DNA of 64,000 nucleotides from an uncultured Methanosarcinales archaeon (GTDB taxonomy: Archaea > Nanobdellota > Nanobdellia > Woesearchaeales > GW2011-AR9), in contig CAYFMJ010000003.1 in the NCBI GenBank assembly GCA_964344235.1, positions 1-64,000 of the forward strand, in the 5' to 3' direction. Below are positions 4,301 to 25,356 of this stretch, one piece after another (position 1 is the first letter of the stretch; each line of letters starts with the position of its first letter). Under the pieces are notes generated by a model that saw only the letters and a program-made list of their open reading frames with translations, searched no databases and had not been told where the DNA came from. The translations under genes were made by a program, and so were the position numbers.

Positions 4301-6016
4301 ATGCCAACAGCACCGTGGGATCTATCTGCAGTTAAACCCAAAAGTATTGATGGAGAGTTGAAGTCTATTGCAGCTCTTGCTAAGAAGATTGAGAAGAAGC
4401 GAAGAATGTTAACAAACTCTATTTCTACGAGGACATTCATAGCTATCGTGAAAGAGTTAGAGAATTTGCGGAAGAAGTCATCTAAATTAGGGGTGTATGT
4501 TCATTTGCGGTTCTGTGAGAATTCTAAGGATCAAAAAGCGACGGCCGACATGACAAAAGTAGAAACAGCGTTAGCGAAGATTAGTAACACGTTGTTGTTC
4601 TTTTCATTATGGTTTAAACAATTACCGGAGAAGAAGGCAAAGGAACTCATTAAAGCGAGCGGTAAGTACAAGTATCATTTTGAATTATTAAGAAAGAATA
4701 AAAAATATACATTACAGGAAAATGAGGAGAAAATTATCAATATTAAAGATACAACTGGTGTTTCTGCAATAACTAATGTCTATAATATTCTCACAGCAGG
4801 GTTTGAGTATGAGTTCCAGGGTAAGAAGAGAACACAGGAAGAAATGGTGACGTATGTCCGAAGTTCTTCTGCAAAAGTTAGAGAAGCAGCATATAGGGAA
4901 CTCTTCAGACCGTATAAAGCGAATAAAGCTGTTATAGGAGAGATTTACAAAAACATCATTAATGATTGGCGAGAAGAAAACGTTGGCCTACGAGGTCATA
5001 AAAGCCCAATTTCTGTACGGAATAATGTGAATGATATTCCAGATAAAGCAATTGATGTTTTGTTAAAAGTGTGTGAGAAGAATCAGAAATTATTTCATAG
5101 ATTTTTTGAAATTAAACGAAAGAGATTAGGATTGAAGAGATTACGGCGGTTTGATGTGTATGCTCCATTAAAGGAGGAGAAAGGAACCATTTCGTATGAT
5201 ACAGCAGTTTCTATGGTGTTAGAAACATTTGCTGATTTCTCTTCGGAGTTTCATGATGCTACAAAGACGATTTTAGAGAAGAAACATGTCCATAGTAAAG
5301 TGCAGAAAGGTAAACGTTCAGGTGCGTTTTGTTGTTCATCTACGTGTGAGATTGAACCGTTTGTGTTGTTAAGTTATACAGGGAAGTATAGGGACGTTTC
5401 AACACTTGCACACGAATTAGGACATGGTGTGCATGATATGCTTGCTTCAAAACAGACAGAGTTTACATCACAAGCATGTTTACCTCTTGCTGAGACAGCT
5501 TCTATTTTCTCAGAGATGTTATTATCAGAGAGAATGTTAAGGATTAATCCTGCAGCGGCAAAGAATATGATGTTTACGAAGTTAGATGATTTGTATGCTT
5601 CTATCATTCGGCAAGCTGGCTTTGTAGCATTTGAGAGAAAAGCACACGATATGATGCGGGATGGGAAGACAATCGATGAGATGAGTGCTGTGTATTTGAA
5701 AGATTTGAAGAAACAGTTAGGACCTGTTGTTGTTGATGAAATCTATCAGTATGAATGGGCGTATATTCCCCACATTTTCCATACGCCGTTTTATTGCTAT
5801 GCGTATGCATTTGGCAATTTGTTGACACTTGCTATTTATGAAATGTATAAAGAGAAAGGTGCATCGTTTGTTCCTAAAGTGATTGAGATGTTATCTGCGG
5901 GTGGTTCAATGGAGCCAGTAAAGATTGCAAAGATTGTTGGTGCGGATATTACATCTGAGAAGTTTTGGCAGAAAGGATTTGATGTTATTAAAAACATGAT
6001 AGATCAGATTGAGTGA
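4301..6016 (+). CDS. pepF: oligoendopeptidase F (M3B)
   Basis: TLAHELGHG (HExxH), AETASIFSEM, HIFHTPFYCYAYAFG. Confidence 0.92.
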   Translation: MPTAPWDLSAVKPKSIDGELKSIAALAKKIEKKRRMLTNSISTRTFIAIVKELENLRKKSSKLGVYVHLRFCENSKDQKATADMTKVETALAKISNTLLFFSLWFKQLPEKKAKELIKASGKYKYHFELLRKNKKYTLQENEEKIINIKDTTGVSAITNVYNILTAGFEYEFQGKKRTQEEMVTYVRSSSAKVREAAYRELFRPYKANKAVIGEIYKNIINDWREENVGLRGHKSPISVRNNVNDIPDKAIDVLLKVCEKNQKLFHRFFEIKRKRLGLKRLRRFDVYAPLKEEKGTISYDTAVSMVLETFADFSSEFHDATKTILEKKHVHSKVQKGKRSGAFCCSSTCEIEPFVLLSYTGKYRDVSTLAHELGHGVHDMLASKQTEFTSQACLPLAETASIFSEMLLSERMLRINPAAAKNMMFTKLDDLYASIIRQAGFVAFERKAHDMMRDGKTIDEMSAVYLKDLKKQLGPVVVDEIYQYEWAYIPHIFHTPFYCYAYAFGNLLTLAIYEMYKEKGASFVPKVIEMLSAGGSMEPVKIAKIVGADITSEKFWQKGFDVIKNMIDQIE

Positions 6017-8814: not shown

Positions 8815-9007
8815 TTCCTCCGTAAGTGTGATCAGAATAAACCCTCTGTTTTGAAATCCAGAAGAAGAGGTGCTATATATAGTTTGTGATTTACAACTTT
8901 AATGGAAATTCTTGGCGGTACTTCTTATTATGTTTTATAATGCTTTTGTTAACGACATAGTGGTTAAAAGAGAAAACTATTAAAATAACAGATGAGTTTA
9001 GCAGTAG

Positions 9008-10165
9008 ATGGATTCCATTGAGAGAGAAGTTGTTGTACTAGGAGATATTGAATTAGGGGGGGGAACTCTCACGGACGATTTTATTGCAGACAAGTCAATT
9101 GCAAAATTATTTCGAACATTAGCAAGACGGAAGAAACCAGTTGATTTGATTCTCAATGGAGATACGATTGATTTTCTGAAATGCCCTTACATAAAAGATG
9201 GAAAACGAAGTTATCCACGGCATATTACTTCGGAGGTTTCATTAAGTAAATTGGAGCTGGTGTATAATGCTCACAAACCGTTCTTTGATGGGTTGCAAAC
9301 ATTTGTCAAACATAAAAAGAATAGAGTCTATTTTATTATTGGCAACCACGATCATGATTTATTTTTCAGATCTGTGCAGCGGCAGATTAAGAAATATTTG
9401 AAAGCGAGAAGGAACGTTTTCTTTAGAATGTTTTACAGGCTAGATGGCATTTATGTTGAGCATGGACAACAGTATGATTTTATTAATAAAATCAATAAGC
9501 GACGGCCGTTTATTATCTACAAAGGAAGAAAAATTCTTAACATTCCCTGGGTTTCGTTTGGGATTATTAGTAAAGCTTTGTATATCAAAGAGAAACATCC
9601 TTTTTTGGAACGGATCTTACCACGACCAGATTTGTTAAAACACCATAAGTCGTTGATTAAGTTAATTAGTAGGAAAGGGTTGATTTATGCATTCCTGAGT
9701 TTTTTATATTATCCCATTCGATATTTTTACGATCCAACATACGTATTGCCGCGAGAACTGTTTCGAGAGATGTACCGACGTTATAAAGACGTTCATTGGG
9801 ATGTTGATAACATTATGGGAACGTTCAAACGAAAGAGAAAGAGAACTATACAAAAAAATAGAATTCACATTCTTGGCCATGTGCATGAGCGATATGTTGA
9901 AGAGGGAGCTGGTTGGACGTTAATTCATCCCGATACGTGGCGGGACGAGTATGATTTTGATGCAAAAACAAGATTATTGCATCCAAAAGTGAAACGCTAT
10001 GTGCACATTTTCGTGAAAGAATCCGGAGAGTTAGATTGGAAAATGGTGAACTGGCCGCATAAGCGTAAAGTAATCAAATTTGATGATGCTGTGAAGGACG
10101 AAATGAAATATATCAAAATGGCAGCGAGAGCTGAGGGTTATGGGTTACGGTTGCTTAAGAAATAA
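9008..10165 (+). CDS. calcineurin-like metallophosphoesterase
   Basis: GDIE, LNGDTIDF, GNHDHD, EHG and GHVH motifs. Confidence 0.8.
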   Translation: MDSIEREVVVLGDIELGGGTLTDDFIADKSIAKLFRTLARRKKPVDLILNGDTIDFLKCPYIKDGKRSYPRHITSEVSLSKLELVYNAHKPFFDGLQTFVKHKKNRVYFIIGNHDHDLFFRSVQRQIKKYLKARRNVFFRMFYRLDGIYVEHGQQYDFINKINKRRPFIIYKGRKILNIPWVSFGIISKALYIKEKHPFLERILPRPDLLKHHKSLIKLISRKGLIYAFLSFLYYPIRYFYDPTYVLPRELFREMYRRYKDVHWDVDNIMGTFKRKRKRTIQKNRIHILGHVHERYVEEGAGWTLIHPDTWRDEYDFDAKTRLLHPKVKRYVHIFVKESGELDWKMVNWPHKRKVIKFDDAVKDEMKYIKMAARAEGYGLRLLKK

Positions 10166-10230
10166 TTTTTTATCACTAATACACAATAAGGAAGCTTTAT
10201 ATAGAAAGTTAGTTCTGAGGGAGTAGTGGG

Positions 10231-10881
10231 GTGTTACATATTTTAGAAAACGCAGTTGTGGAAATTGGGAAAAAGTATCCATCATTTGTAGAGTCTGTTG
10301 TGCGTTCTTTACAGGAGAGTTTTTTGAGGAATCTATTAATGCGTGAGTTTTCTGTTGTAACGGTTGAGAAACAGGAGGGGTTAGATACGCATGCAGAGAT
10401 TAAAGCGGCTGTTGGAGATGTCGTTACGAAAGAAAAAGATGAGGAAACGGTTGAAGTATTAGAAGAGATTGAAGATGAGTTTGTTAATGTGGATGAAGAT
10501 ACAATTGGGGGGAGTGTGAAGTATGGCTTCGATGAAGAAGCGTTTTTGAGGGAACAATTTTATGGAAGTGCAGTAGTTAGTTATGATGTTGAGAAAATGT
10601 GGTATAGTGGTGATGGAAAGAGAGGAGCAGAATTTAAGAGTGAGGAATTTTATCAGAGTTCTGGAATGGAAAAGAAAATTTCCTCCGGAATTCTCTCAAC
10701 TGTTGAGGCAGAAAAAGTGTTTAAAGATATTCAATATTCTTCTGTTTTCGGCAGACCAGGAGAAGTGAGTACGGAAGATCGGGAGAAATTTAACATGTGG
10801 ATTCAATTCAATAAAGTAATGTTTTATTTCTTTGAGAGTACTGCTATTAGTCGAGAAGTGAATTATGCTCCACAATTTTAA
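10231..10881 (+). CDS. acidic hypothetical protein
   Basis: 216-aa ORF, GTG start. Confidence 0.65.
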   Translation: MLHILENAVVEIGKKYPSFVESVVRSLQESFLRNLLMREFSVVTVEKQEGLDTHAEIKAAVGDVVTKEKDEETVEVLEEIEDEFVNVDEDTIGGSVKYGFDEEAFLREQFYGSAVVSYDVEKMWYSGDGKRGAEFKSEEFYQSSGMEKKISSGILSTVEAEKVFKDIQYSSVFGRPGEVSTEDREKFNMWIQFNKVMFYFFESTAISREVNYAPQF

Positions 10882-11636
10882 TACCACAATTCGAGCATTT
10901 CTTCTTCAACAAAGTGAAGTTCTCCAGGAATAATTAAGCTGTGTGGCGGTTTGCCAAAATCGATGGTTGCTATGTTTTTTAATGGGCCCGCTTTAATTAA
11001 TGGATTGTCCGTTCCTAAACGTGCACAACCAACAACTATTGTGTTTTCTGTAATTATGTTTTCTTGTTTTCGTTGTTCGATATTTTCTAATGTTGTAATT
11101 GCTTGATTGACAGTCATGAATTTATCATGTGCTGGTTTTAAGTCTAATAAGCAGAGCGTATGTAATCCTGCTTTCTGATTTTCTTTGATGACATTATAAG
11201 GTGTTTCTAGATTAGGATGATCTTCCAGAAACGGAATCGATGTTGTTTTACCAAATTTGTATAATTCTAATCCCGTAATGCCAATGGCAGTGAGGATAGA
11301 AGCGTTGTGAATTACTCTAACTTCTACGCCATGTTCTTTTGCCAATTTGAATAATTGGATGTGGGTTGTCGCGGAAAGTGAGTCACCAACAACTAAGAAA
11401 GCGATGTTTTTTGTTTTCGCTTCTTCGATGATTTTTTGGTCTCCCTGTTCAGTTGTATTTCTATCTGCAACGATTAATTCTTTGTTGTAGAATTTTGCGA
11501 GATCATGAAGAGAGCATTGCAATAATGAAGTATAATTTTCAATGTAAACAATATCCGCGGCTTCAATCGCAGCTTTTCCTCGCAGTGTAATGTCTTGTTC
11601 ATTTCCTAATCCAAGGCCAATAAGTGTGAGTGTCAT
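10878..11636 (-). CDS. dph5: diphthine synthase
   Basis: LIGLGL, GDSLSATTH, YKFGKTTSIPF, HTLCLLD. Confidence 0.95.
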   Translation of the reverse strand: MTLTLIGLGLGNEQDITLRGKAAIEAADIVYIENYTSLLQCSLHDLAKFYNKELIVADRNTTEQGDQKIIEEAKTKNIAFLVVGDSLSATTHIQLFKLAKEHGVEVRVIHNASILTAIGITGLELYKFGKTTSIPFLEDHPNLETPYNVIKENQKAGLHTLCLLDLKPAHDKFMTVNQAITTLENIEQRKQENIITENTIVVGCARLGTDNPLIKAGPLKNIATIDFGKPPHSLIIPGELHFVEEEMLELWY

Positions 11637-17694: not shown

Positions 17695-18888
17695 CTAAAA
17701 AGCTGTGAGTTTTGTTTGATGTTTTCTTTCTTTCATTAATTTACTCTGTTGTAGGAAGACGGAGATGTCAACGCCGAATTTTCGTTTGGCGAATTGTTTT
17801 GCGTAATGTAGCATTAGTTCTTCAGAAGCAAAGTTGATGGGGTGGGATTGCACACTTTTTCTGGCTGATTCTCGACAAACCCATACTCCTAACGGGAGAT
17901 TATACTGAGAGGTGATAAAGCGGAGGGCTAAACAGCTATGCTGCCGTTTGAGTTTCTTCATTTGTTCGAGGATTGGGAGACGTGCAGCGTAATAACCACC
18001 TGCAGTCTCGTCAGCGTATTTTTTTCTTCCTTTATAGTTCTCATAATCGGTTGAGTAGGAGAAGCCCTGTTTGCTCCAGGGATTACTTTTGAGGTAGAGG
18101 TATGTTTCAAATAATTCATAACTCCAGACTTCTGGGAAGAAGAGGAATAAGTAGTAATTCCCCCAACCACCACCAAAATACGCTTGATACTCTCCCGTAG
18201 GGAAGTCTTTAATTTCTTTGATTAGTTGTTTACCAATCGTATCATCAGTAGCGGTAATAGACCATCTGGTGGGAACGAGTTTTCTATTGTTTTTTAATCC
18301 TAAATTGCCAACCGAGAGTAGTTTGTGGAGAGTGTTTTCTTCAAAGCCCTTTTTGTAAAGGTTGAGGATTCCTAGGTTTGCTTTCAAATCTGTATCGTAG
18401 ACGACTTTCTCTACTCTTGTATCTGTTTTGATGTTTTCTGTTACTCTAGCTTTCTGCACTTCACTCGCAGGACCGTACGGAATGATTTCTTTTTCTTGCT
18501 TTGTGGAAAGTTTCGGTGCTTTTTTTAGGGAGACTTCCAAGTCAGCAGCTTTCTTAGCCATGCCAACTTCCTGGACGATATCTAAGAATTTTCCACCCTT
18601 TTGTAATTGTTTGACAGACCATTTAGTTCTACTGTTCACTAAGCTGTATCTCTTACTAGCGATAGAACCAATAGAGGCGTTATTTTGACTCCATAATCGG
18701 GGAGAATCATATTCTTGCATTTCTCCGATAAATTGTGGGGAAAGAACACCAATGTTTACGTGAGGGTAGCCATATCTACCAATGAATGGGGCAGGGGCTG
18801 AGCCTTGGAATTGTTGTTTGAAATGTGTGTTAACTTTTAATTGAGGAATTTGTTCAATATCTTTGAATTTGACACGGTGAATGTTCAT
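17695..18888 (-). CDS. nreA: Nre-family DNA repair protein
   Basis: FIGRYGYPHVNIG, LVPTRWSITATD, AGGYYAAR, C-terminal PIP-like QTKLTAF; no N-terminal Cys cluster. Confidence 0.88.
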   Translation of the reverse strand: MNIHRVKFKDIEQIPQLKVNTHFKQQFQGSAPAPFIGRYGYPHVNIGVLSPQFIGEMQEYDSPRLWSQNNASIGSIASKRYSLVNSRTKWSVKQLQKGGKFLDIVQEVGMAKKAADLEVSLKKAPKLSTKQEKEIIPYGPASEVQKARVTENIKTDTRVEKVVYDTDLKANLGILNLYKKGFEENTLHKLLSVGNLGLKNNRKLVPTRWSITATDDTIGKQLIKEIKDFPTGEYQAYFGGGWGNYYLFLFFPEVWSYELFETYLYLKSNPWSKQGFSYSTDYENYKGRKKYADETAGGYYAARLPILEQMKKLKRQHSCLALRFITSQYNLPLGVWVCRESARKSVQSHPINFASEELMLHYAKQFAKRKFGVDISVFLQQSKLMKERKHQTKLTAF

Positions 18889-19700
18889 AATTTATCATAG
18901 GGACTTTGGATGTTTAATAATTTCGGTGCTGCTAAATGAGTATAGATTAACGTAGTTTCTAAATTTTTATGGCCTAAAAGTGGTTGAACGTCAGTCACAG
19001 CATAGCCGTTTTCGATTAAGTGAGTAGCAAAAGAGTGACGCAACATGTGTGGATGAACGTGTTTACTTATTTCGGCTTTCTTTTGTGCTTTACTGAGAAT
19101 TCTCCGCACTGAGGAAGTCGTCATATGACTTTTATGTCCCCGGAATAGCCAATCGTCATTTGTTAATTTATGTTCTTTAATCCATTGAGTGATTTCTTCT
19201 TTCAATTTCTCTGCAATAATAAAAATTCTATCTTTCCCTCCTTTACCGTTTCTCACCCAACCATAATTGCTGTCAAAGTGAAAGTGTTTAACTTTGAGGT
19301 GAACTAGTTCAGATACTCTCAATCCAGCTGAGTACATAAGGGTTATCATTAGCTTATGTTTTCTATTGTTGATGACTTTTAATAGTGATCGTACTTCATC
19401 TTGCTGTAAAAATCCTGGCAGAGATCTTCGTTGTTTTGCCATTGGAATGTTAATTGTTAGCCTCTTATGCAAAACTTTTTCATACAGAAATTTGAGTGCA
19501 CCTAAATGAACGTTCTGAGTGTTACCTGACTTGTGATATATACGCCGTAGGTGTTTCTCAATGTCTTTCTTTGTGACACTGTGGACATCTTTCTTGTATG
19601 TTCTCAGAAATTTTTGAATAACGCATATATATGTTTTAATCGTTCTTGGAGAATAATTCCTTTTCAGTCCTTCTTTTCTAATTAACTCAGCAACATTCAT
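18885..19700 (-). CDS. XerA/XerD-like tyrosine recombinase
   Basis: N-terminal NYSPRTIKTY, GLRVSE, GKGGKDR, HPHMLRHSFATHL, LGHKNLETTLIYTH, C-terminal SPYD. Confidence 0.93.
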   Translation of the reverse strand: MNVAELIRKEGLKRNYSPRTIKTYICVIQKFLRTYKKDVHSVTKKDIEKHLRRIYHKSGNTQNVHLGALKFLYEKVLHKRLTINIPMAKQRRSLPGFLQQDEVRSLLKVINNRKHKLMITLMYSAGLRVSELVHLKVKHFHFDSNYGWVRNGKGGKDRIFIIAEKLKEEITQWIKEHKLTNDDWLFRGHKSHMTTSSVRRILSKAQKKAEISKHVHPHMLRHSFATHLIENGYAVTDVQPLLGHKNLETTLIYTHLAAPKLLNIQSPYDKL

Positions 19701-19740
19701 ATTACTTTGGGGATTTGTTAATTTAAATATTCTATCCGTA

Positions 19741-19794
19741 GTTGTCCAGTGGGGAGTGGCTACAAAGTGGGACAGAACTATAGAGAGTAGTAAC
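19741..19794. repeat. recombinase-proximal motif, copy 1
   Basis: 38 of 43 aligned bases match 52062-52104 after an 11-bp gap. Confidence 0.8.
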
Positions 19795-19924
19795 AGTTTT
19801 TTGCGTTATGGGATTGAGTAGAGGCTTTGAATTCAAAGAATTTCACTAAGTGCAATAAAATTCTCATTAAAACGGAAACTACGTTGGGGTGCTCTTTGGA
19901 TGTAAACTCTCTTCTTTAACTTGA

Positions 19925-19984
19925 TAAAAACTAACGAAAATTCCACTTTAAACTCAATGTAAAAAACTATATAGGCGGGAAGAT
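19925..19984. repeat. att-like site L
   Basis: TAAAAACTAAC, AAAATTCCACTT, AATGTAAAAAACTA and AGGCGGGAAGA, each with a counterpart at 22952-22997. Confidence 0.7.
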
Positions 19985-20719
19985 TTAAGGCTTCGCCATT
20001 CTCCACAAAAAATCAAAATAAATTCTAAAACCATCTGCGATATTTCTATTCTTAATGATAAAAGCATAGGGTGTTTCCTCCCATAACAAAATAAATACAT
20101 ACTCTTGAAAAATATCTATTGCTGCTGGACTCCTAAACCCTTTCTCCATAAATCTAATTTGCCCCCACTTTTCTCTCTTTCTTTGTTCAAAAAACTTATT
20201 CTTTCTATTATCCAAAATCATTCTAAACTTATGCTTCTTTTGCTTTGATACTTTATTTACATCCCTCAGCAAAGCTGCTAATTTCTCATTTTTGTAAGCT
20301 TGATTTGAGAAACCAATAATATCTAATGTTTCACCAACAGGACATTCCTCAACTAACCTATACAATGCAGACTTGAAACCTTGAAATCCCTCAAAAACGG
20401 CAGTTTCAGTTTCTTTCTTCTCTTTCAATTGAAGCGTTTTCAAATAGGGAATAGCTTCTTCAATTTTTTTCATTCGTTCTTTCATCACTTCACTGATGAC
20501 ATCAGGATCAAGAGCAGAATAAAGTTTTCCTTTTTGCCGTTTTTCATAAGTAATAATTCCTTTCTGTACTAAAGTATCAAGAGCAGCATAAACTCGTGAA
20601 TTTGCAATTCCAGTCTTCCGTCTAACCTCGGTTCCAGTACATTTACCTAATTTCAATATCAGGACATAAATCTTAATCTCGTTATCAGTTAGCCCTAATA
20701 ATTTTAGTTTTTCTTCCAT
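19985..20719 (-). CDS. TrmB-family transcriptional regulator
   Basis: LGLTDNEIKIY N-terminal HTH, SRVYAALDTLVQKG. Confidence 0.85.
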   Translation of the reverse strand: MEEKLKLLGLTDNEIKIYVLILKLGKCTGTEVRRKTGIANSRVYAALDTLVQKGIITYEKRQKGKLYSALDPDVISEVMKERMKKIEEAIPYLKTLQLKEKKETETAVFEGFQGFKSALYRLVEECPVGETLDIIGFSNQAYKNEKLAALLRDVNKVSKQKKHKFRMILDNRKNKFFEQRKREKWGQIRFMEKGFRSPAAIDIFQEYVFILLWEETPYAFIIKNRNIADGFRIYFDFLWRMAKP

Positions 20720-20777
20720 ATACTCCTAAATAGGAGAACTTATATTTAAATATTTCTGTCACAACTTAATAGTAGAT

Positions 20778-21497
20778 ATGTCAAAAACTAACCCTTTTAA
20801 TGAAATAGAACATGAAAGAACCAATCTTAACCTAGACAAACAATTCAGCATTTTACCTACTGTAATTCATTTACTCCGCCCATTGTCTGGAAAAAGAGTT
20901 ATTGATGTTGGTTGTGGAGATGGCTTTTTTACTTTGCCAATTGCAGATCAATCACCAACACATGTTTATGGCATTGACAATTGTGTTAGACAAATTGAAA
21001 AAGCGGAGAAAGAACCACATCCCAGAGTATCCTACTCTGTTACAGATATGTTTGATGAATTACCTCCAGCTGAGAGAGTAAATGCTCCATTTGTCTTGAA
21101 TTACACTGAAACTACACGAGAACTGAGATTATTACTAAGAAATTTCTACCAAAGTCTAACAAAAGATGGAAAGTTAGTTGCCGTTGTTGATCTCCCTAAA
21201 CCAAATTTTAACTCACAACAAAGAGAAAGAAAAAGACAATTGAGTGTAGTTAAAACATTAGCGGGAGAACTTCAAGATGAAACTGGAATAAAACTAGATT
21301 TCTATAACGGCAACGGAATTATGTTTAGCTTGTCAGCCACATATTACACGCCTCAAACAATCACTGGTGTTTTGTCTGATGTTGGCTTTACGAGAATACA
21401 ATGGCACCAACCACTAATAGAGGAAAACTCTCCTCTTAGTTCTTGGCAAGATTATCAAGAGTTATGCGAATTAGGATATATTACAGCTGAAAAATGA
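20778..21497 (+). CDS. class I SAM-dependent methyltransferase
   Basis: VIDVGCGDG motif I, GID. Confidence 0.85.
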   Translation: MSKTNPFNEIEHERTNLNLDKQFSILPTVIHLLRPLSGKRVIDVGCGDGFFTLPIADQSPTHVYGIDNCVRQIEKAEKEPHPRVSYSVTDMFDELPPAERVNAPFVLNYTETTRELRLLLRNFYQSLTKDGKLVAVVDLPKPNFNSQQRERKRQLSVVKTLAGELQDETGIKLDFYNGNGIMFSLSATYYTPQTITGVLSDVGFTRIQWHQPLIEENSPLSSWQDYQELCELGYITAEK

Positions 21498-22165
21498 TGG
21501 AAATAATAGTTTGGACAATTGGAACCTTATTAATCTTAACAATTAGTGCCTCTCTAGCAAAAAGATTTGGCTCAGTGTTCATCATTGGTTTATTTTCAGC
21601 TTTGTATGTAACTGCTAATATTCTTGCTAATAAAATTTTACAAATTGGACCTTATAGTGTTCCTGCTGGAATCATTGCATTTTCTTTAACTTTCTATCTA
21701 ACTGATCTTTTGTCAGAAATTTATGGAAAGAAAACTGCTTTGAAAGCTGTATGGATTGGCTTTTTCTCTCAAATAGTTCTCGTGTTCTCAATTTGGGTTG
21801 CAATCCAATGGCCTTCTGCACCATTTTGGCAAAATCAAGAAGCATTTGTTTCTGTTTTATCAAACACTTGGAGAATAGTGGGGGCTTCATTATTAACATA
21901 TATTGTAAGTCAAAATCACGATGTGTGGGCTTATGATTTCTGGAGAAAAGTTACAAATGGAAAACATTTATGGATAAGAAATAATGCTTCAACAATTGTA
22001 AGTCAAGCAATAGATACTTTTCTATTTACAACACTGGCATTTTATGGAGTATTTGAAATCCCAGCATTAATATCAATGATGATAGGTACTTTTATCATTA
22101 AGATGTTAATCGCAGTATTGGATACACCTTTCTTGTATATAATGAAGAGATATTTTAAGAAATAA
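21494..22165 (+). CDS. queuosine/7-deazaguanine precursor transporter (YhhQ/VUT family)
   Basis: ANILANK, TDLLSEIYG, SQNHDV, WIRNNASTIVSQAIDT. Confidence 0.88.
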   Translation: MMEIIVWTIGTLLILTISASLAKRFGSVFIIGLFSALYVTANILANKILQIGPYSVPAGIIAFSLTFYLTDLLSEIYGKKTALKAVWIGFFSQIVLVFSIWVAIQWPSAPFWQNQEAFVSVLSNTWRIVGASLLTYIVSQNHDVWAYDFWRKVTNGKHLWIRNNASTIVSQAIDTFLFTTLAFYGVFEIPALISMMIGTFIIKMLIAVLDTPFLYIMKRYFKK

Positions 22166-22166
22166 A

Positions 22167-22535
22167 CTAAGCACTAGCAGAAGCAACTAACGGACTTTGA
22201 AAATCAGCTTGAGCAAAAGCAGGCAATTTTTCTATAATCTTTTGGTTTCCGTGTTCAAAAGATAATGAAATAATCCAATAGTTGCGATAATTAGTAAACT
22301 GTAATTCTGCTTCTTGTAATCCAGAAAGCATTTCTTTACTGATATTCTCATTCAAAGTATGCAAAAATTTGTAGGCATCTAGTAACTCTACATTAGCAAT
22401 TCTTCTATCTTTATCTAAATCAATTACTAATTCTTCAGTTACTTCTACGCTTTCAGAAACGGAAGCGTCCTCTCTATAAATAGTTAAGACATCTCCTTCT
22501 TTATCATACGAGACCTTAAATTTTTGACTAATCAT
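22167..22535 (-). CDS. DUF2283-domain protein
   Basis: YDKEGDVLTI, LVIDLDKD, VELLDA. Confidence 0.8.
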   Translation of the reverse strand: MISQKFKVSYDKEGDVLTIYREDASVSESVEVTEELVIDLDKDRRIANVELLDAYKFLHTLNENISKEMLSGLQEAELQFTNYRNYWIISLSFEHGNQKIIEKLPAFAQADFQSPLVASASA

Positions 22536-22556
22536 ATTTACTTGAAATCCCCGCTA

Positions 22557-22904
22557 CTATTTAAACCTTTTTCTGTATCTTTTCAAAGTCGTTCTGCCTA
22601 GTGGAAATACAGTGATAATCTTGATTTGTTTGTCAAATTTGAGTACATAACGTCTGCCTCTATTATTTGAATATACAAAATAACATCTAAATCTCTCCTC
22701 CTTTTCGCCCCCATGCTCTATTTGCTGTTTCTCAGTAAATGTGAGATCTTTCGGATTTAAGACCTCTTCTTTCATTTTGTCAACAGTTGTATTATTCCTT
22801 TTGCACAACCAATCAAGAATACGAGATTTAGTAAAAAAGATTTGGTCTTTTGAATATTTCTTAACTTTCTCTTTGACAACATCAGATTTATCTCTTTTAG
22901 CCAT
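22557..22904 (-). CDS. putative toxin (RelE/DUF4258-like)
   Basis: basic protein ending IKIITVFP, directly upstream of DUF2283. Confidence 0.5.
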   Translation of the reverse strand: MAKRDKSDVVKEKVKKYSKDQIFFTKSRILDWLCKRNNTTVDKMKEEVLNPKDLTFTEKQQIEHGGEKEERFRCYFVYSNNRGRRYVLKFDKQIKIITVFPLGRTTLKRYRKRFK

Positions 22905-22951
22905 TATCTACAACAATTCAAACAGTAATATAAAAACATTCCTAAGAATTT

Positions 22952-22997
22952 TCTTCCCGCCTTTTCTAGAATGTAAAAACTAACTAAGTGGAATTTT
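22952..22997. repeat. att-like site R
   Basis: TCTTCCCGCCT, AATGTAAAAACTAAC, AAGTGGAATTTT. Confidence 0.7.
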
Positions 22998-23048
22998 TTC
23001 TTATGTAAGCTAAGATAGTTCAATGCTACACTGTGACGTGCTGGAAAA

Positions 23049-23101
23049 ACTTGCTCCGCTAACGCTACGCACCCCTACATAAAGTAGGGGGCACATAACC
23101 T
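23049..23101. repeat. 53-bp direct repeat, copy A
   Basis: identical to 24094-24146; contains CCCCTAC-ATAAA-GTAGGGG hairpin. Confidence 0.95.
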
Positions 23102-23166
23102 CTTATGTGCAATAAGCCTACGACGAGCAGTAGAAGTAAAACTTCTTCTTTAATAAAAATGTAATT

Positions 23167-23180
23167 GGGTGTCCGTTTCT
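23167..23180. repeat. 14-bp inverted repeat, left
   Basis: GGGTGTCCGTTTCT, reverse complement of 24025-24038. Confidence 0.85.
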
Positions 23181-23185
23181 AAGAA

Positions 23186-23962
23186 CTATTCTACAACATA
23201 ATGATAGAAAACTTTTGGTCCTTCTCTTAAATGTTCCTCAAAATGTTTATTCAATTCTTTAAGAGAATCTCCACAAGCTCTTAAAAAAAGAGGATCTTTT
23301 ACTTGAACATGTAACACAAATTTTCCAGATGGAACACTTTTATATCTAGAAGAGAAAAAATCTAAATCCACTATTTGCTTTCTATTCTTTTCTACCCTTT
23401 CTGTTTTCCAGAATAAAAATCGTCCTTCATGTCTTGTTTCGTGAATATGATAAATTCTTACATATCCATCACCATCAATAGCATCGTATCCTCTTTTATA
23501 AGTATCTAAATCAAATTTATCAGTCGGTAATGAAGACCTAACAGAATCAATTAAAACATTACCATAAGTTTTAATGATTGCACCAAAACTAGGGATAGCT
23601 CCATGATCATATATATCGGCAAATTGTTGTTCAACTGTTGGATATCTTAAAGCGATTGCTCTTTCCATATAATCAGCAGAAATCCCTAAGCTCTGAGCAA
23701 CTTCATAAGCAACAGAAACTGGAAAATTTCCTTCATGAACAAGTGTTCCTTCAACCGCATCAAGAACTGCTTTATCTCCTTTTCTTTCATCAAACTGCCT
23801 TAAAGAATCAGCAAGTGCAATTAAATCTAAAAATTCTTTTTCAGGAAGATTTCTTTCTGATGGAGATAAAACTAATCTTTGATCTAGTGAATCTGTTCTT
23901 ACTAAACTTGTTTCTTCATCTGAAGTCATTGTTAATTGAGCACCTTCTTGACTTTGCAACAT
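23186..23962 (-). CDS. hypothetical protein
   Basis: 258-aa ORF bracketed by direct and inverted repeats. Confidence 0.7.
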   Translation of the reverse strand: MLQSQEGAQLTMTSDEETSLVRTDSLDQRLVLSPSERNLPEKEFLDLIALADSLRQFDERKGDKAVLDAVEGTLVHEGNFPVSVAYEVAQSLGISADYMERAIALRYPTVEQQFADIYDHGAIPSFGAIIKTYGNVLIDSVRSSLPTDKFDLDTYKRGYDAIDGDGYVRIYHIHETRHEGRFLFWKTERVEKNRKQIVDLDFFSSRYKSVPSGKFVLHVQVKDPLFLRACGDSLKELNKHFEEHLREGPKVFYHYVVE

Positions 23963-24024
23963 ATATTCTTGAGAATCTAGTTCATTTAAAAAGTTTTCTG
24001 CCTGTAACTACTAAACAATAAATA

Positions 24025-24038
24025 AGAAACGGACACCC
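24025..24038. repeat. 14-bp inverted repeat, right
   Basis: AGAAACGGACACCC. Confidence 0.85.
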
Positions 24039-24093
24039 CTTATTGCTTGCGCTTTAATTTTTAACTTGATGTAACTTGGCTCGTCTCCAGCTT

Positions 24094-24180
24094 ACTTGCT
24101 CCGCTAACGCTACGCACCCCTACATAAAGTAGGGGGCACATAACCTTTCGGACATGGACATGAAGTCCATGCCACATAAC
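24094..24180. repeat. 53-bp direct repeat copy B (24094-24146) plus a second 36-bp hairpin unit
   Basis: exact match to copy A, then CATGGAC-ATGAA-GTCCATG-CCACATAAC. Confidence 0.9.
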
Positions 24181-24213
24181 ACCAAAATTCAATAGAATAA
24201 GTGTGGAGGAAAA

Positions 24214-25356
24214 TTATTCTGGAGGGACTATCCCCTCAAGAGGAGGCTCTCCTTTGGGTACACAAACAAGATATGTACACCCGGTTACTTCATAATCTAC
24301 TTCTTTTCTTGGCTCAACGTCATCTCCTTGGGCTAAGCAACTTTCCTCTTTAAGACTTAGTTCCTCCTCGGAGGGACATTCGCTACACCTAATTTGCCCA
24401 CATGGCCAATCCTGTCCCTCAAACCACTCAGAGTATTTGTATGCTAAAAAGTTCTCTCCCTTAGCTTGACAGTCGATCGTAGCTTTCTCTAAAAGAGGTT
24501 CAGGAGTACATTGGCTTATTTCTCCGCCAGCACAATAAACCGTCTCACATCCATTAGCATCGGGTAATGAGAATGGTTTCAGGTCACCACAATCTTGCTT
24601 CATTTCAGCTAGTGCTTCATCAGTAAAGCATCCATTCTTTCCTAACTTCGTTAAGTCTCCTTTCTTAGGAAGGATTGTAATCGGCGCTGCACAAATATCA
24701 TTGTCATCTTTATCTGCAACTATCACAAAATATACGGTTTTAGTGGTGACGTCACCCCAATCACAACTGGTGTCACTAATCTTTAAACTTGCTGGAACTG
24801 CTGTTTTATAGGGGTGGTCTGAACTCTTTCCATAACGTTCAAATTGATCGCAAGAAATGCTAACTTTTTCGTATTTTAATGTTTCATCTGTAAATGTAAT
24901 ATCAACTTTTACATTTTCATTCCCTTTTGCTTCTTCCTTGGCTAAATCTATTGTACATTTCGGATTTTTTACTGTAATATCGGCAAGTGCCATCTCTGCT
25001 GCCCGCTCTTCAACAACTTCAATCTGCTCCTCAATAGCTTCTTCTTTAATCTCTTCTACAGTTTTAGGTGGAGTAATAGATTCTGTTTCCATTTGCTTAT
25101 CCGGTTCAACTACTTCTGCATCAATTATTGGTGGGCCACCCTCACCTTCTCCTCCAATCGAACTCACTTCATCACTGCTCTGGTCATAAGAATTTTCAGC
25201 AGACTTTTCGGAACCAGTAAACAACTCAATAAAAAAACTTTTCACTTTACAGAAAAAGCCACATTCTTCATCAGAACTAGATGTCGCTTCCGCGTGAACC
25301 ATAAGTGTACTTACCATCAAAACTAATATACACACAACAACCAACCTCTTTTTCAT
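24214..25356 (-). CDS. secreted Cys-rich acidic protein
   Basis: N-terminal signal peptide, many paired Cys. Confidence 0.75.
   Translation of the reverse strand: MKKRLVVVCILVLMVSTLMVHAEATSSSDEECGFFCKVKSFFIELFTGSEKSAENSYDQSSDEVSSIGGEGEGGPPIIDAEVVEPDKQMETESITPPKTVEEIKEEAIEEQIEVVEERAAEMALADITVKNPKCTIDLAKEEAKGNENVKVDITFTDETLKYEKVSISCDQFERYGKSSDHPYKTAVPASLKISDTSCDWGDVTTKTVYFVIVADKDDNDICAAPITILPKKGDLTKLGKNGCFTDEALAEMKQDCGDLKPFSLPDANGCETVYCAGGEISQCTPEPLLEKATIDCQAKGENFLAYKYSEWFEGQDWPCGQIRCSECPSEEELSLKEESCLAQGDDVEPRKEVDYEVTGCTYLVCVPKGEPPLEGIVPPE

Follow-up and report, generated by a model that had tools for sequence, protein, structure and literature searches.

A row of gene cassettes bounded by dif-like sites beside a XerA-type recombinase gene in Woesearchaeota: a probable integron-like arrangement

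Results

Organization of the locus

The DNA stretch analyzed in this work (the window) comprises positions 1-64,000 of contig CAYFMJ010000003.1 (GCA_964344235.1), which is contig C3 of a 37-contig genome of 1.19 Mb (G000). The subject is a block of genes that adjoins, on the upstream side, a gene for a XerA-type tyrosine recombinase of 271 aa (18885-19700, minus strand; Pfam Phage_integrase and SAM_4), which is transcribed away from it. A first-pass annotation had described the block as a discrete mobile unit framed by swapped inverted repeats in the manner of attL and attR sites. Here we describe its organization, its counterparts in other genomes and samples, and the probably integron-like nature of the cassette row to which it belongs. 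Sites, boxes and repeat arms are given on the plus strand throughout.

The block corresponds to cassette 1 of the row. As common to other samples (a Tara Oceans contig and Logan contigs), this cassette extends over 3.2 kb, from a CTCTTCTTTAA box to the core of the next boundary site (19899-23102). Its cargo consists of a TrmB-family regulator (19985-20719, minus strand; Pfam TrmB, 6.2e-15), an S-adenosylmethionine (SAM)-dependent methyltransferase (20778-21497, plus strand; Pfam Methyltransf_23/25/11), a Vut_1/YhhQ-type transporter (21494-22165, plus strand; Pfam Vut_1, 4.6e-54), a DUF2283 protein (22167-22535, minus strand; Pfam DUF2283, 2.7e-11) and a 115-aa protein for which no family was found (22557-22904, minus strand). 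The last two are a possible toxin-antitoxin pair.

Cassette 1 is followed by recombination site 1 (23049-23113), which was recognized by the covariance model R1 described below with 55 bits and an E value of 1e-10. It begins with ACTTGCTCC..CGCTACGCA and continues with the hairpin CCCCTAC-ATAAA-GTAGGGG (23072-23090) and the dif-like core GCACATAAC-CTC-TTATGTGCAAT (23091-23113). In each copy of the site, ..CACATAAC comes after a G+C-rich hairpin of 7 bp whose loop is RTRAA; in site 1 this sequence continues as the core palindrome. Cassette 2 (23100-24146), delimited by its flanking site copies, carries a single gene (23186-23962, minus strand) for a protein of 258 aa without a recognizable family; the site copies on its two sides are identical over 53 bp (23049-23101 and 24094-24146). 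At the far end of the row sites 2 and 3 stand in tandem (24094-24195), their hairpins (24117-24135 and 24153-24171) each followed by ..CACATAAC and a degenerate right arm.

Boundary sites and their link to xer genes

Nine site modules are present in the genome, distributed over four contigs (C3, C1, C9 and C26); their flanks are conserved and their 7-bp stems fully covary. The model R1 represents this module and was run on 114 genomes of the archaeal family. It detected no further copies in this genome beyond the nine, and found sites in 70 of the 114 family genomes, often as same-strand rows with a spacing of 0.3-4 kb and with up to 18 matches per relative (in G018). The consensus of about 75 nt consists of an AACTY box, a small variable hairpin and the 7-bp hairpin, followed by ..CA TAAC ATC GTTAWGYNNAAT; a given boundary has one or two such small hairpins. 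The dif-like core within it has the consensus TAAC-ATC-GTTAWG..AAT, in which the arms are clearly inverted and from which the cleavage points and the spacer length cannot be read.

All sites of one row lie on a single strand. Of the eight loci whose upstream sequence reaches 2 kb or more, seven have sites at 0.9-3.6 kb upstream of the xer orthologue, as does one shorter locus, and in every instance the sites and the orthologue are on opposite strands; in G010 as many as 12 sites stand directly upstream of the orthologue. Most of the other xer orthologues lie 0.2-3 kb from a contig end, with their upstream side towards that end. In another genus (L026, contig C1 of G004, 8842-11496) the first cassette next to the xer orthologue likewise includes a TrmB-like gene (30% identity), with xer on one side of it and the nearest R1 site on the other.

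Further cassettes of the same system occur in the present genome at C1:377329-380931, C9:283-1832 and C26:1294-1350, and several rows stop at contig ends. One C1 cassette holds a TrmB-like regulator with two open reading frames (ORFs), and the cassette adjoining it a MazF/AbrB-like pair. The sites on C9 and C26 have common sequence downstream.

Swapped inverted words around the block

The words that frame the block are X (AAAATTCCACTT, 19937-19948) with its reverse complement rcX (22986-22997), Y (AGGCGGGAAGA, 19973-19983) with its reverse complement rcY (22952-22962), and a directly repeated M, whose left copy (AATGTAAAAAACTA, 19956-19969) and right copy (AATGTAAAAACTA, 22970-22982) match at 13 of 14 positions. 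The first-pass annotation had reported all of them, with correct coordinates for X and for the right-hand words; it had placed left M and left Y one base too high, at 19957-19970 and 19974-19984. An 11-nt word, TAAAAACTAAC, occurs at 19925 and 22974. Neither X, Y nor M has a further exact copy in the window, and in the whole genome these words are unique save for one chance copy of Y at C1:3220.

We scanned the genome with a script for direct cores of at least 10 nt accompanied by swapped inverted arms, both of at least 9 nt. Three cases were found in the real genome as against 0, 0, 0, 0 and 1 in five block-shuffled control genomes, and all three real cases sit in cassettes bounded by the conserved site. 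The other two (C9 414/1713 and C1 377445/379479) have a similar core (TGTAAAACTAA and ACTAAAACTA) and quite different arms. The swapped-arm geometry around the block is therefore real, recurrent and beyond chance. The same scan with an 8-nt core on the loci of the relatives returned mostly A/T-rich noise.

Nested arms are specific to each cassette

Cassettes were cut between consecutive sites from G000 and 19 relatives, and the first and last 160 nt of each of the 67 cassettes so obtained were compared. The longest exact inverted repeat between the two ends of the same cassette had a median length of 13 nt and reached at least 11 nt in 81% of the 67. Across a site, between the end of one cassette and the start of the next, an inverted repeat of at least 11 nt was found in 0 of 42 comparisons, and in 2% of random pairs. 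Each cassette has two to four nested arms (O1 to O4) whose sequences differ in every cassette, with at least two of them at stereotyped positions in 52 of 67. The start of O1 lies 14 nt beyond TAAC and the partner of O1 stops immediately ahead of the AACTY box, with a fixed spacing on both sides; O2, preceded by a CTCTTCTTT box, stands at about +55 to +70 and O3 at about +100. In cassette 2 the arms are 23114-23130/24078-24093 (imperfect), 23166-23181/24024-24039 and 23206-23215/23990-23999. The cassettes carry one to five genes in both directions (85 versus 43) and have a median length of 1.13 kb.

Between the arms the spacers contain A-rich TGTAAAACTA-type motifs with a strong strand preference (22 versus 4 at cassette starts, 21 versus 5 at cassette ends). 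Within this layout X is the left half of O2 and Y the left half of O3, with rcX and rcY as the respective right halves, and M represents the strand-specific A-rich motif of the unpaired spacers between arms, here between O2 and O3. The copy of TAAAAACTAAC at 19925 is a further M-type spacer motif. Arm O2 of cassette 1 is preceded by the box GATGTAAACTCTCTTCTTTAA (19899-19919), a member of repeat family D2 with similar boxes at 23133-23153 and in C9; CTCTTCTTT boxes hold this place in the relatives.

The family layout further predicted that cassette 1 should possess an outer arm O1. Its right half is GTGCTGGAAAAA (23038-23049), and an arm TTTTTCCAGCACG, the complement of 23037-23049, was due at the left end of the cassette. 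The predicted arm is absent from this genome. In the Tara Oceans contig, 12 of its 13 bases are present as TTTTTCCAGCAC, at exactly the expected position of +14 after TAAC.

Copies of cassette 1 in other contexts

This contig (CEPX01069324.1, L096) was found by a metagenome search with the TrmB protein, to which its own product is 98% identical, and it aligns with the window from 19899 at 94% identity. Left of cassette 1 it carries a canonical site, in which the hairpin is followed by cagca-TAAC-ATC-GTTATGCCCAA and then by TTTTTCCAGCAC. X is unchanged there, Y has one change and left M four; X lies at +69 after the core, which fits the usual position of O2. Upstream of the site the contig holds a 565-bp cassette 99.5% identical to one that occurs twice in G061. 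The identity ends directly after TAACATCGTTA, and in each of the three contexts the next cassette is a different one. Cassettes have been exchanged, and the breakpoints of the exchange lie at the dif-like core. The description of the block as a discrete mobile unit is borne out by the presence of this cassette in other contexts.

Logan contigs from three marine runs span 19904-23061 with an identity of about 88-97%. By these contigs xerA and the neighbouring nre gene are barely covered, and 23346-23679 and 24348-25349 not at all. Contigs, not reads, were compared here with the window, and only small shares were found (0.10 or less). Taken together, the extents of homology in the Tara and Logan sequences indicate a shared unit that runs from the box at 19899 to the next site and not from M to M. 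The first-pass annotation had placed the crossover within M or, alternatively, within TAAAAACTAAC. Neither placement agrees with the homology, which reaches from 19899/19904 to 23061 or beyond and extends well past X and rcX; X is conserved in the Tara copy where left M has changed, about one third of the 67 cassettes have same-strand motifs like TGTAAAACTA at both of their ends, and the breakpoints between genomes are at TAACATCGTTA instead. The empty site X-M-rcX, which had been proposed as the product of excision, is consequently not expected, since X belongs to the cassette and not to the chromosome.

We also looked for the junctions X-M-rcX and rcY-M-Y in species-representative genomes (GTDB contigs), where they gave 19 and 110 matching stretches, respectively, all of them unrelated bacterial hairpins. 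Many of these stretches belong to an abundant family of palindromic repeats in bacteria (L165-L244), whose stems are made up of the Y word AGGCGGGAAGA and its complement and whose loops are like TACCGGTAAGTTTTTACCGGTA. The family occurs mostly in metagenome-assembled genomes (MAGs) of Chitinophagaceae and Sphingobacteriales, and also in one labelled Citrobacter freundii; it has no relation to the cassettes of the archaea.

In the present genome cassette 1 lacks its first 28 nt, that is the right core arm and the outer arm O1, so that this copy may no longer be excisable by the canonical route and may be locked in place. In one marine contig (run X1) position 22781 is joined to 23137 with 30 other letters between; it may represent a variant arrangement in which a p115-like gene adjoins another CTTCTTCTTTAA box. 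Other TrmB homologues in the metagenomes (at most 70% aa identity) were uninformative on the arms, none of them adjoining an R1 site. Two genomes each have a row that contains two copies of one cassette, at 5104 and 9061 of L077 (G010:C2) and at 1315-1891 and 5406-5985 of L089 (G061:C6).

Predicted folding of circle junctions

The junctions that excised circles would contain were predicted and folded as single-stranded DNA. For cassette 1, with O1 supplied from the Tara copy, the predicted fold has -41.4 kcal/mol (z -5.5); the corresponding values are -48.4 kcal/mol (z -7.0) for the C9 cassette and -49.3 kcal/mol (z -7.3) for cassette 2. A junction folded as it stands in the row gave -26.6 kcal/mol (z -1.3). 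The circle junctions are predicted to form a long interrupted stem composed of O3, O2 and O1, with the small hairpins and the core palindrome in the loop. That the circle junction would be a hairpin had already been proposed in the first-pass annotation. The two cassette ends would indeed pair; the hairpin predicted here differs in holding both X and Y and in having the dif-like site at its tip.

The recombinase gene and its left-hand neighbourhood

The recombinase scored 219.4 bits against the NCBIfam model for archaeal XerA (recomb_XerA_Arch, NF040815; curated cutoff 220). Against the integron integrase model TIGR02249 it reached 195 bits (cutoff 265), matched in two stretches, and against PRK15417 it reached 123 (cutoff 435). 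Its best solved relatives are the XerA proteins of P. abyssi and T. acidophilum (4A8E and 5HXY), matched in one stretch, and the match to 2A3V is split. The closest xer relatives are 74-78% identical, and a second XerA-like gene of the same genome, on C15, shows 52% identity to the gene on C3. The housekeeping enzyme may therefore be the other copy and not the row-linked one. By the database names of relatives of the recombinase, the organism falls in Woesearchaeota/Nanoarchaeota.

The stop of the recombinase gene is overlapped by 4 nt by an archaeal nre gene (17695-18888, minus strand; Pfam Nre_N 2.5e-70, Nre_C 1.6e-28), and this Xer-Nre neighbourhood is conserved in G010, G017, G002 and G008. 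The xerA promoter region (19712-19761, minus strand) comprises an A/T box and, directly upstream of it, the motif GTTGTCCAGTGGGGAGTGGCT (19741-19761; on the gene strand CCACT..CCCACTGGACAAC), which is kept upstream of xer orthologues of many genera. The motif also stands upstream of other genes, in at least seven places (C1:165683, 65813, 63445 and 76292; C3:52062; C8:21267; C5:38253; C6:11123), and may be a shared operator or promoter element.

Between the promoter and the cassette lies a 63-bp stretch (19786-19848) with a right-arm-like GTTATGGGATT (19805-19815), identical at 63 of 63 positions to C1:381659-381721 by blastn-short. It could be an attI-like remnant. From GTTATGGGATT to the cassette box (19807-19898, of which 19816-19898 was searched) no partner arms were found anywhere in the genome. 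Both copies of the 63-bp stretch lie next to the promoter motif and A/T box described above. On C1 the promoter faces an ORF of about 40 codons and no xer gene, and a second cassette row is adjacent (sites at C1:377353, 379584 and 380899). The identity of the two copies suggests a recent exchange between the loci.

No tRNA was detected in the window by ARAGORN, and Rfam gave no meaningful match there; a tRNA or a known RNA family was rejected as the target. A bulge-helix-bulge or another RNA-processing stem was likewise rejected as an explanation of the paired words, the M-bearing spacers not being complementary and the cargo lying in both directions.

Discussion

An integron-like row and its proposed mechanism

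In this work we have analyzed a block of five genes that we interpret, with a probability of about 0.7, as the first in an integron-like row of cassettes in Woesearchaeota (DPANN archaea), next to the gene of a XerA-type recombinase. According to this interpretation the row extends from the upstream side of the recombinase gene, its cassettes are bounded by conserved sites with a dif-like core, and each cassette would carry arm halves at its start, after the core, and at its end, before the next site. In an excised circle the halves would become contiguous, and their pairing could give a long, interrupted hairpin that has the core as its tip. A crossover at the core would then integrate the circle and leave the two parts of the hairpin on either side of the cargo, and the neighbouring XerA-type enzyme is the presumed catalyst of recombination between dif-like cores. 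What the analysis adds is the assignment of X, M and Y to O2, a spacer motif and O3, the recovery of O1 at the place predicted for it, and a core breakpoint observed in three contexts. The attL/attR description is thereby replaced by a testable layout that predicts the exact circle and deletion junctions.

Several observations weigh against the interpretation as an integron-like row. Cassette 1 meets the xerA side at 19898/19899, a junction that is not at a canonical core and lies 28 nt inward of the canonical start of the cassette. Neither circles nor empty sites nor junctions at the level of reads were observed, and the Logan contigs of the marine runs contained no informative joint. The catalysis of exchange by the neighbouring enzyme is inferred from adjacency, in a genome with two XerA-like genes. 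A cargo loop of 1-4 kb makes pairing of the arms in the integrated state unlikely. Finally, the seed hairpins of R1 were chosen as perfect hairpins, so the 100% pairing of their stems is partly a matter of construction, a concern that the family-wide matches ease and do not remove.

A more ambitious proposal is that Woesearchaeota possess a true functional analogue of the integron, in which a XerA-type enzyme would act on a core presented at the tip of the folded circle hairpin, possibly in single-stranded form like the sites of CTX phage and attC, and the arms would guide which two sites come together. We regard this as tentative and on balance doubtful. If it were true, it would account for the integrase-less cassette clusters of archaea and would offer a plausible intermediate between Xer and IntI.

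Other readings of the row

The original model of the block, a 3.0-kb element that entered a chromosomal hairpin X-M-rcX through a crossover within M (or TAAAAACTAAC), with excision restoring the hairpin and releasing a circle joined as rcY-M-Y, draws on the near identity of M on both sides, on X and Y being swapped exactly as in attL/attR, and on the same geometry with a similar core at C9 and C1. It has become the least probable of all explanations considered, and hardly a credible one: homology with independent copies reaches 38 nt to the left of X and 64 nt to the right of rcX, a further arm pair, O1, lies outside X, the M-like motifs are repeated in the spacers of many cassettes and M itself has diverged in the Tara copy, the breakpoints between genomes are at the core, and the predicted junctions returned nothing beyond unrelated bacterial hairpins. 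Cargo enclosed by inverted ends in a unit without a transposase of its own would also suit non-autonomous transposons (mobile insertion cassettes), whose terminal repeats the arms would be, with a transposase acting in trans and the dif-like sites serving as mere preferred targets. As the arms differ in every cassette, no single transposase could recognize them; moreover, no target duplication flanks the arms, the exchange breakpoints at the core lie outside all arms and the rows are tied to a Xer-type gene, and we hold this explanation to be very improbable.

Two further explanations accept movement at the cores, or at least movement in the past. In one, the arms would play no part in the recombination site and would act in RNA, or as transcription insulators or terminators that delimit transcripts. 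The arms do bracket the cargo in the integrated state, and the spacers, A-rich on one strand and so T-rich on the other, resemble archaeal oligo-T terminators, left M lying about 20 nt past the TrmB stop codon. The cargo genes are read in both directions, however, and O1, within 14 nt of the core and with a constant spacing at either end, points to a function at the site; we consider arms that act only outside recombination quite unlikely. In the other, the row is a fossil that was formed by past recombination and is now fixed in the lineage, with an immobile copy of cassette 1. The lack of the left core arm and of O1 from cassette 1 here, the degenerate right arms at the far end and the failure to see circles are in keeping with this. 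Cassettes 99.5% identical in different contexts across samples and genomes, and the 53-bp identical site copies around cassette 2, speak against it, and the breaking of contigs upstream of xer in most assemblies fits heterogeneity within populations. We consider a fossil row unlikely, and retain an integron-like row as the preferred interpretation.

If the row is active, these symbiotic archaea with small genomes would own a dedicated gene-shuffling platform derived from the housekeeping Xer/dif toolkit and not from an integron integrase. An active row would bear on the origin of integrons from Xer-type enzymes, on the question of what serves the integrase-less cassette clusters known from archaea, and on the exchange of accessory genes across genera in DPANN archaea.

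Comparison with known systems

The system shares with archaeal Xer/dif the closest solved relatives of its enzyme, which are XerA proteins, and a core of two inverted arms around a short spacer; the right arm of the core, TTATGT..AAT, resembles bacterial dif such as that of E. coli. Archaeal dif, the site at which XerA resolves chromosome dimers, has been described as two 11-nt inverted repeats around a 6-nt spacer, present as a single site per chromosome (Cortez 2010, reviewed in PMC8371274). In contrast, nine sites on four contigs are found here and up to 18 in relatives, they form rows with cargo between them, and their cores are flanked by hairpins and cassette-specific arms. The reviews of archaeal recombinases and Xer systems contain no description of dif-like sites in rows next to xerA, and we found no paper on the system.

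Units without a recombinase of their own and with dif-like sites are also known from the integrative mobile elements exploiting Xer (IMEX), such as the phages CTX, VGJ and TLC, and from the pdif modules of Acinetobacter, both of which are thought to use the host Xer proteins (PMC6449649, PMC7399989, PMC5357621). IMEX integrate at the single chromosomal dif, whereas rows of sites are present here. The pdif modules have oppositely oriented XerC/D and XerD/C sites and reside on plasmids, while all the sites described here point the same way and lie beside a xer gene. Nested cassette-specific arms are found here and in neither IMEX nor pdif modules. The CTX phage builds its site from a folded single strand.

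Ghaly et al. 2022 (PMC9668308) reported integrons with IntI-type integrases from archaea, along with attC clusters that lack an integrase; only six integrases stood against 539 attC sites, some of which came from Nanoarchaeota. Unlike an integron integrase, the enzyme described here is of XerA type, has 271 aa and lacks the IntI-specific additional domain. The attC site is an imperfect hairpin, contiguous and placed at the cassette's 3' end, in which the crossover takes place at the base, in the R' box, whereas the crossover site proposed here is a dif-like palindrome at the hairpin tip; the complementary halves flank the cargo and never the site, which they do in attC. The cassettes also depart from the classical ones in holding one to five genes in both directions and in their median length of 1.13 kb. 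The likenesses with integrons nevertheless extend to the whole architecture: a tyrosine recombinase gene is transcribed away from a row of cassettes of the same orientation located beside and upstream of it, and the boundary sites are structured, with variable sequence and conserved structure. Cargo of toxin-antitoxin type and of no known family is common, and the same cassettes occur in different orders and contexts with their junctions at the recombination site, as in the Tara contig, the two contexts of G061 and G000.

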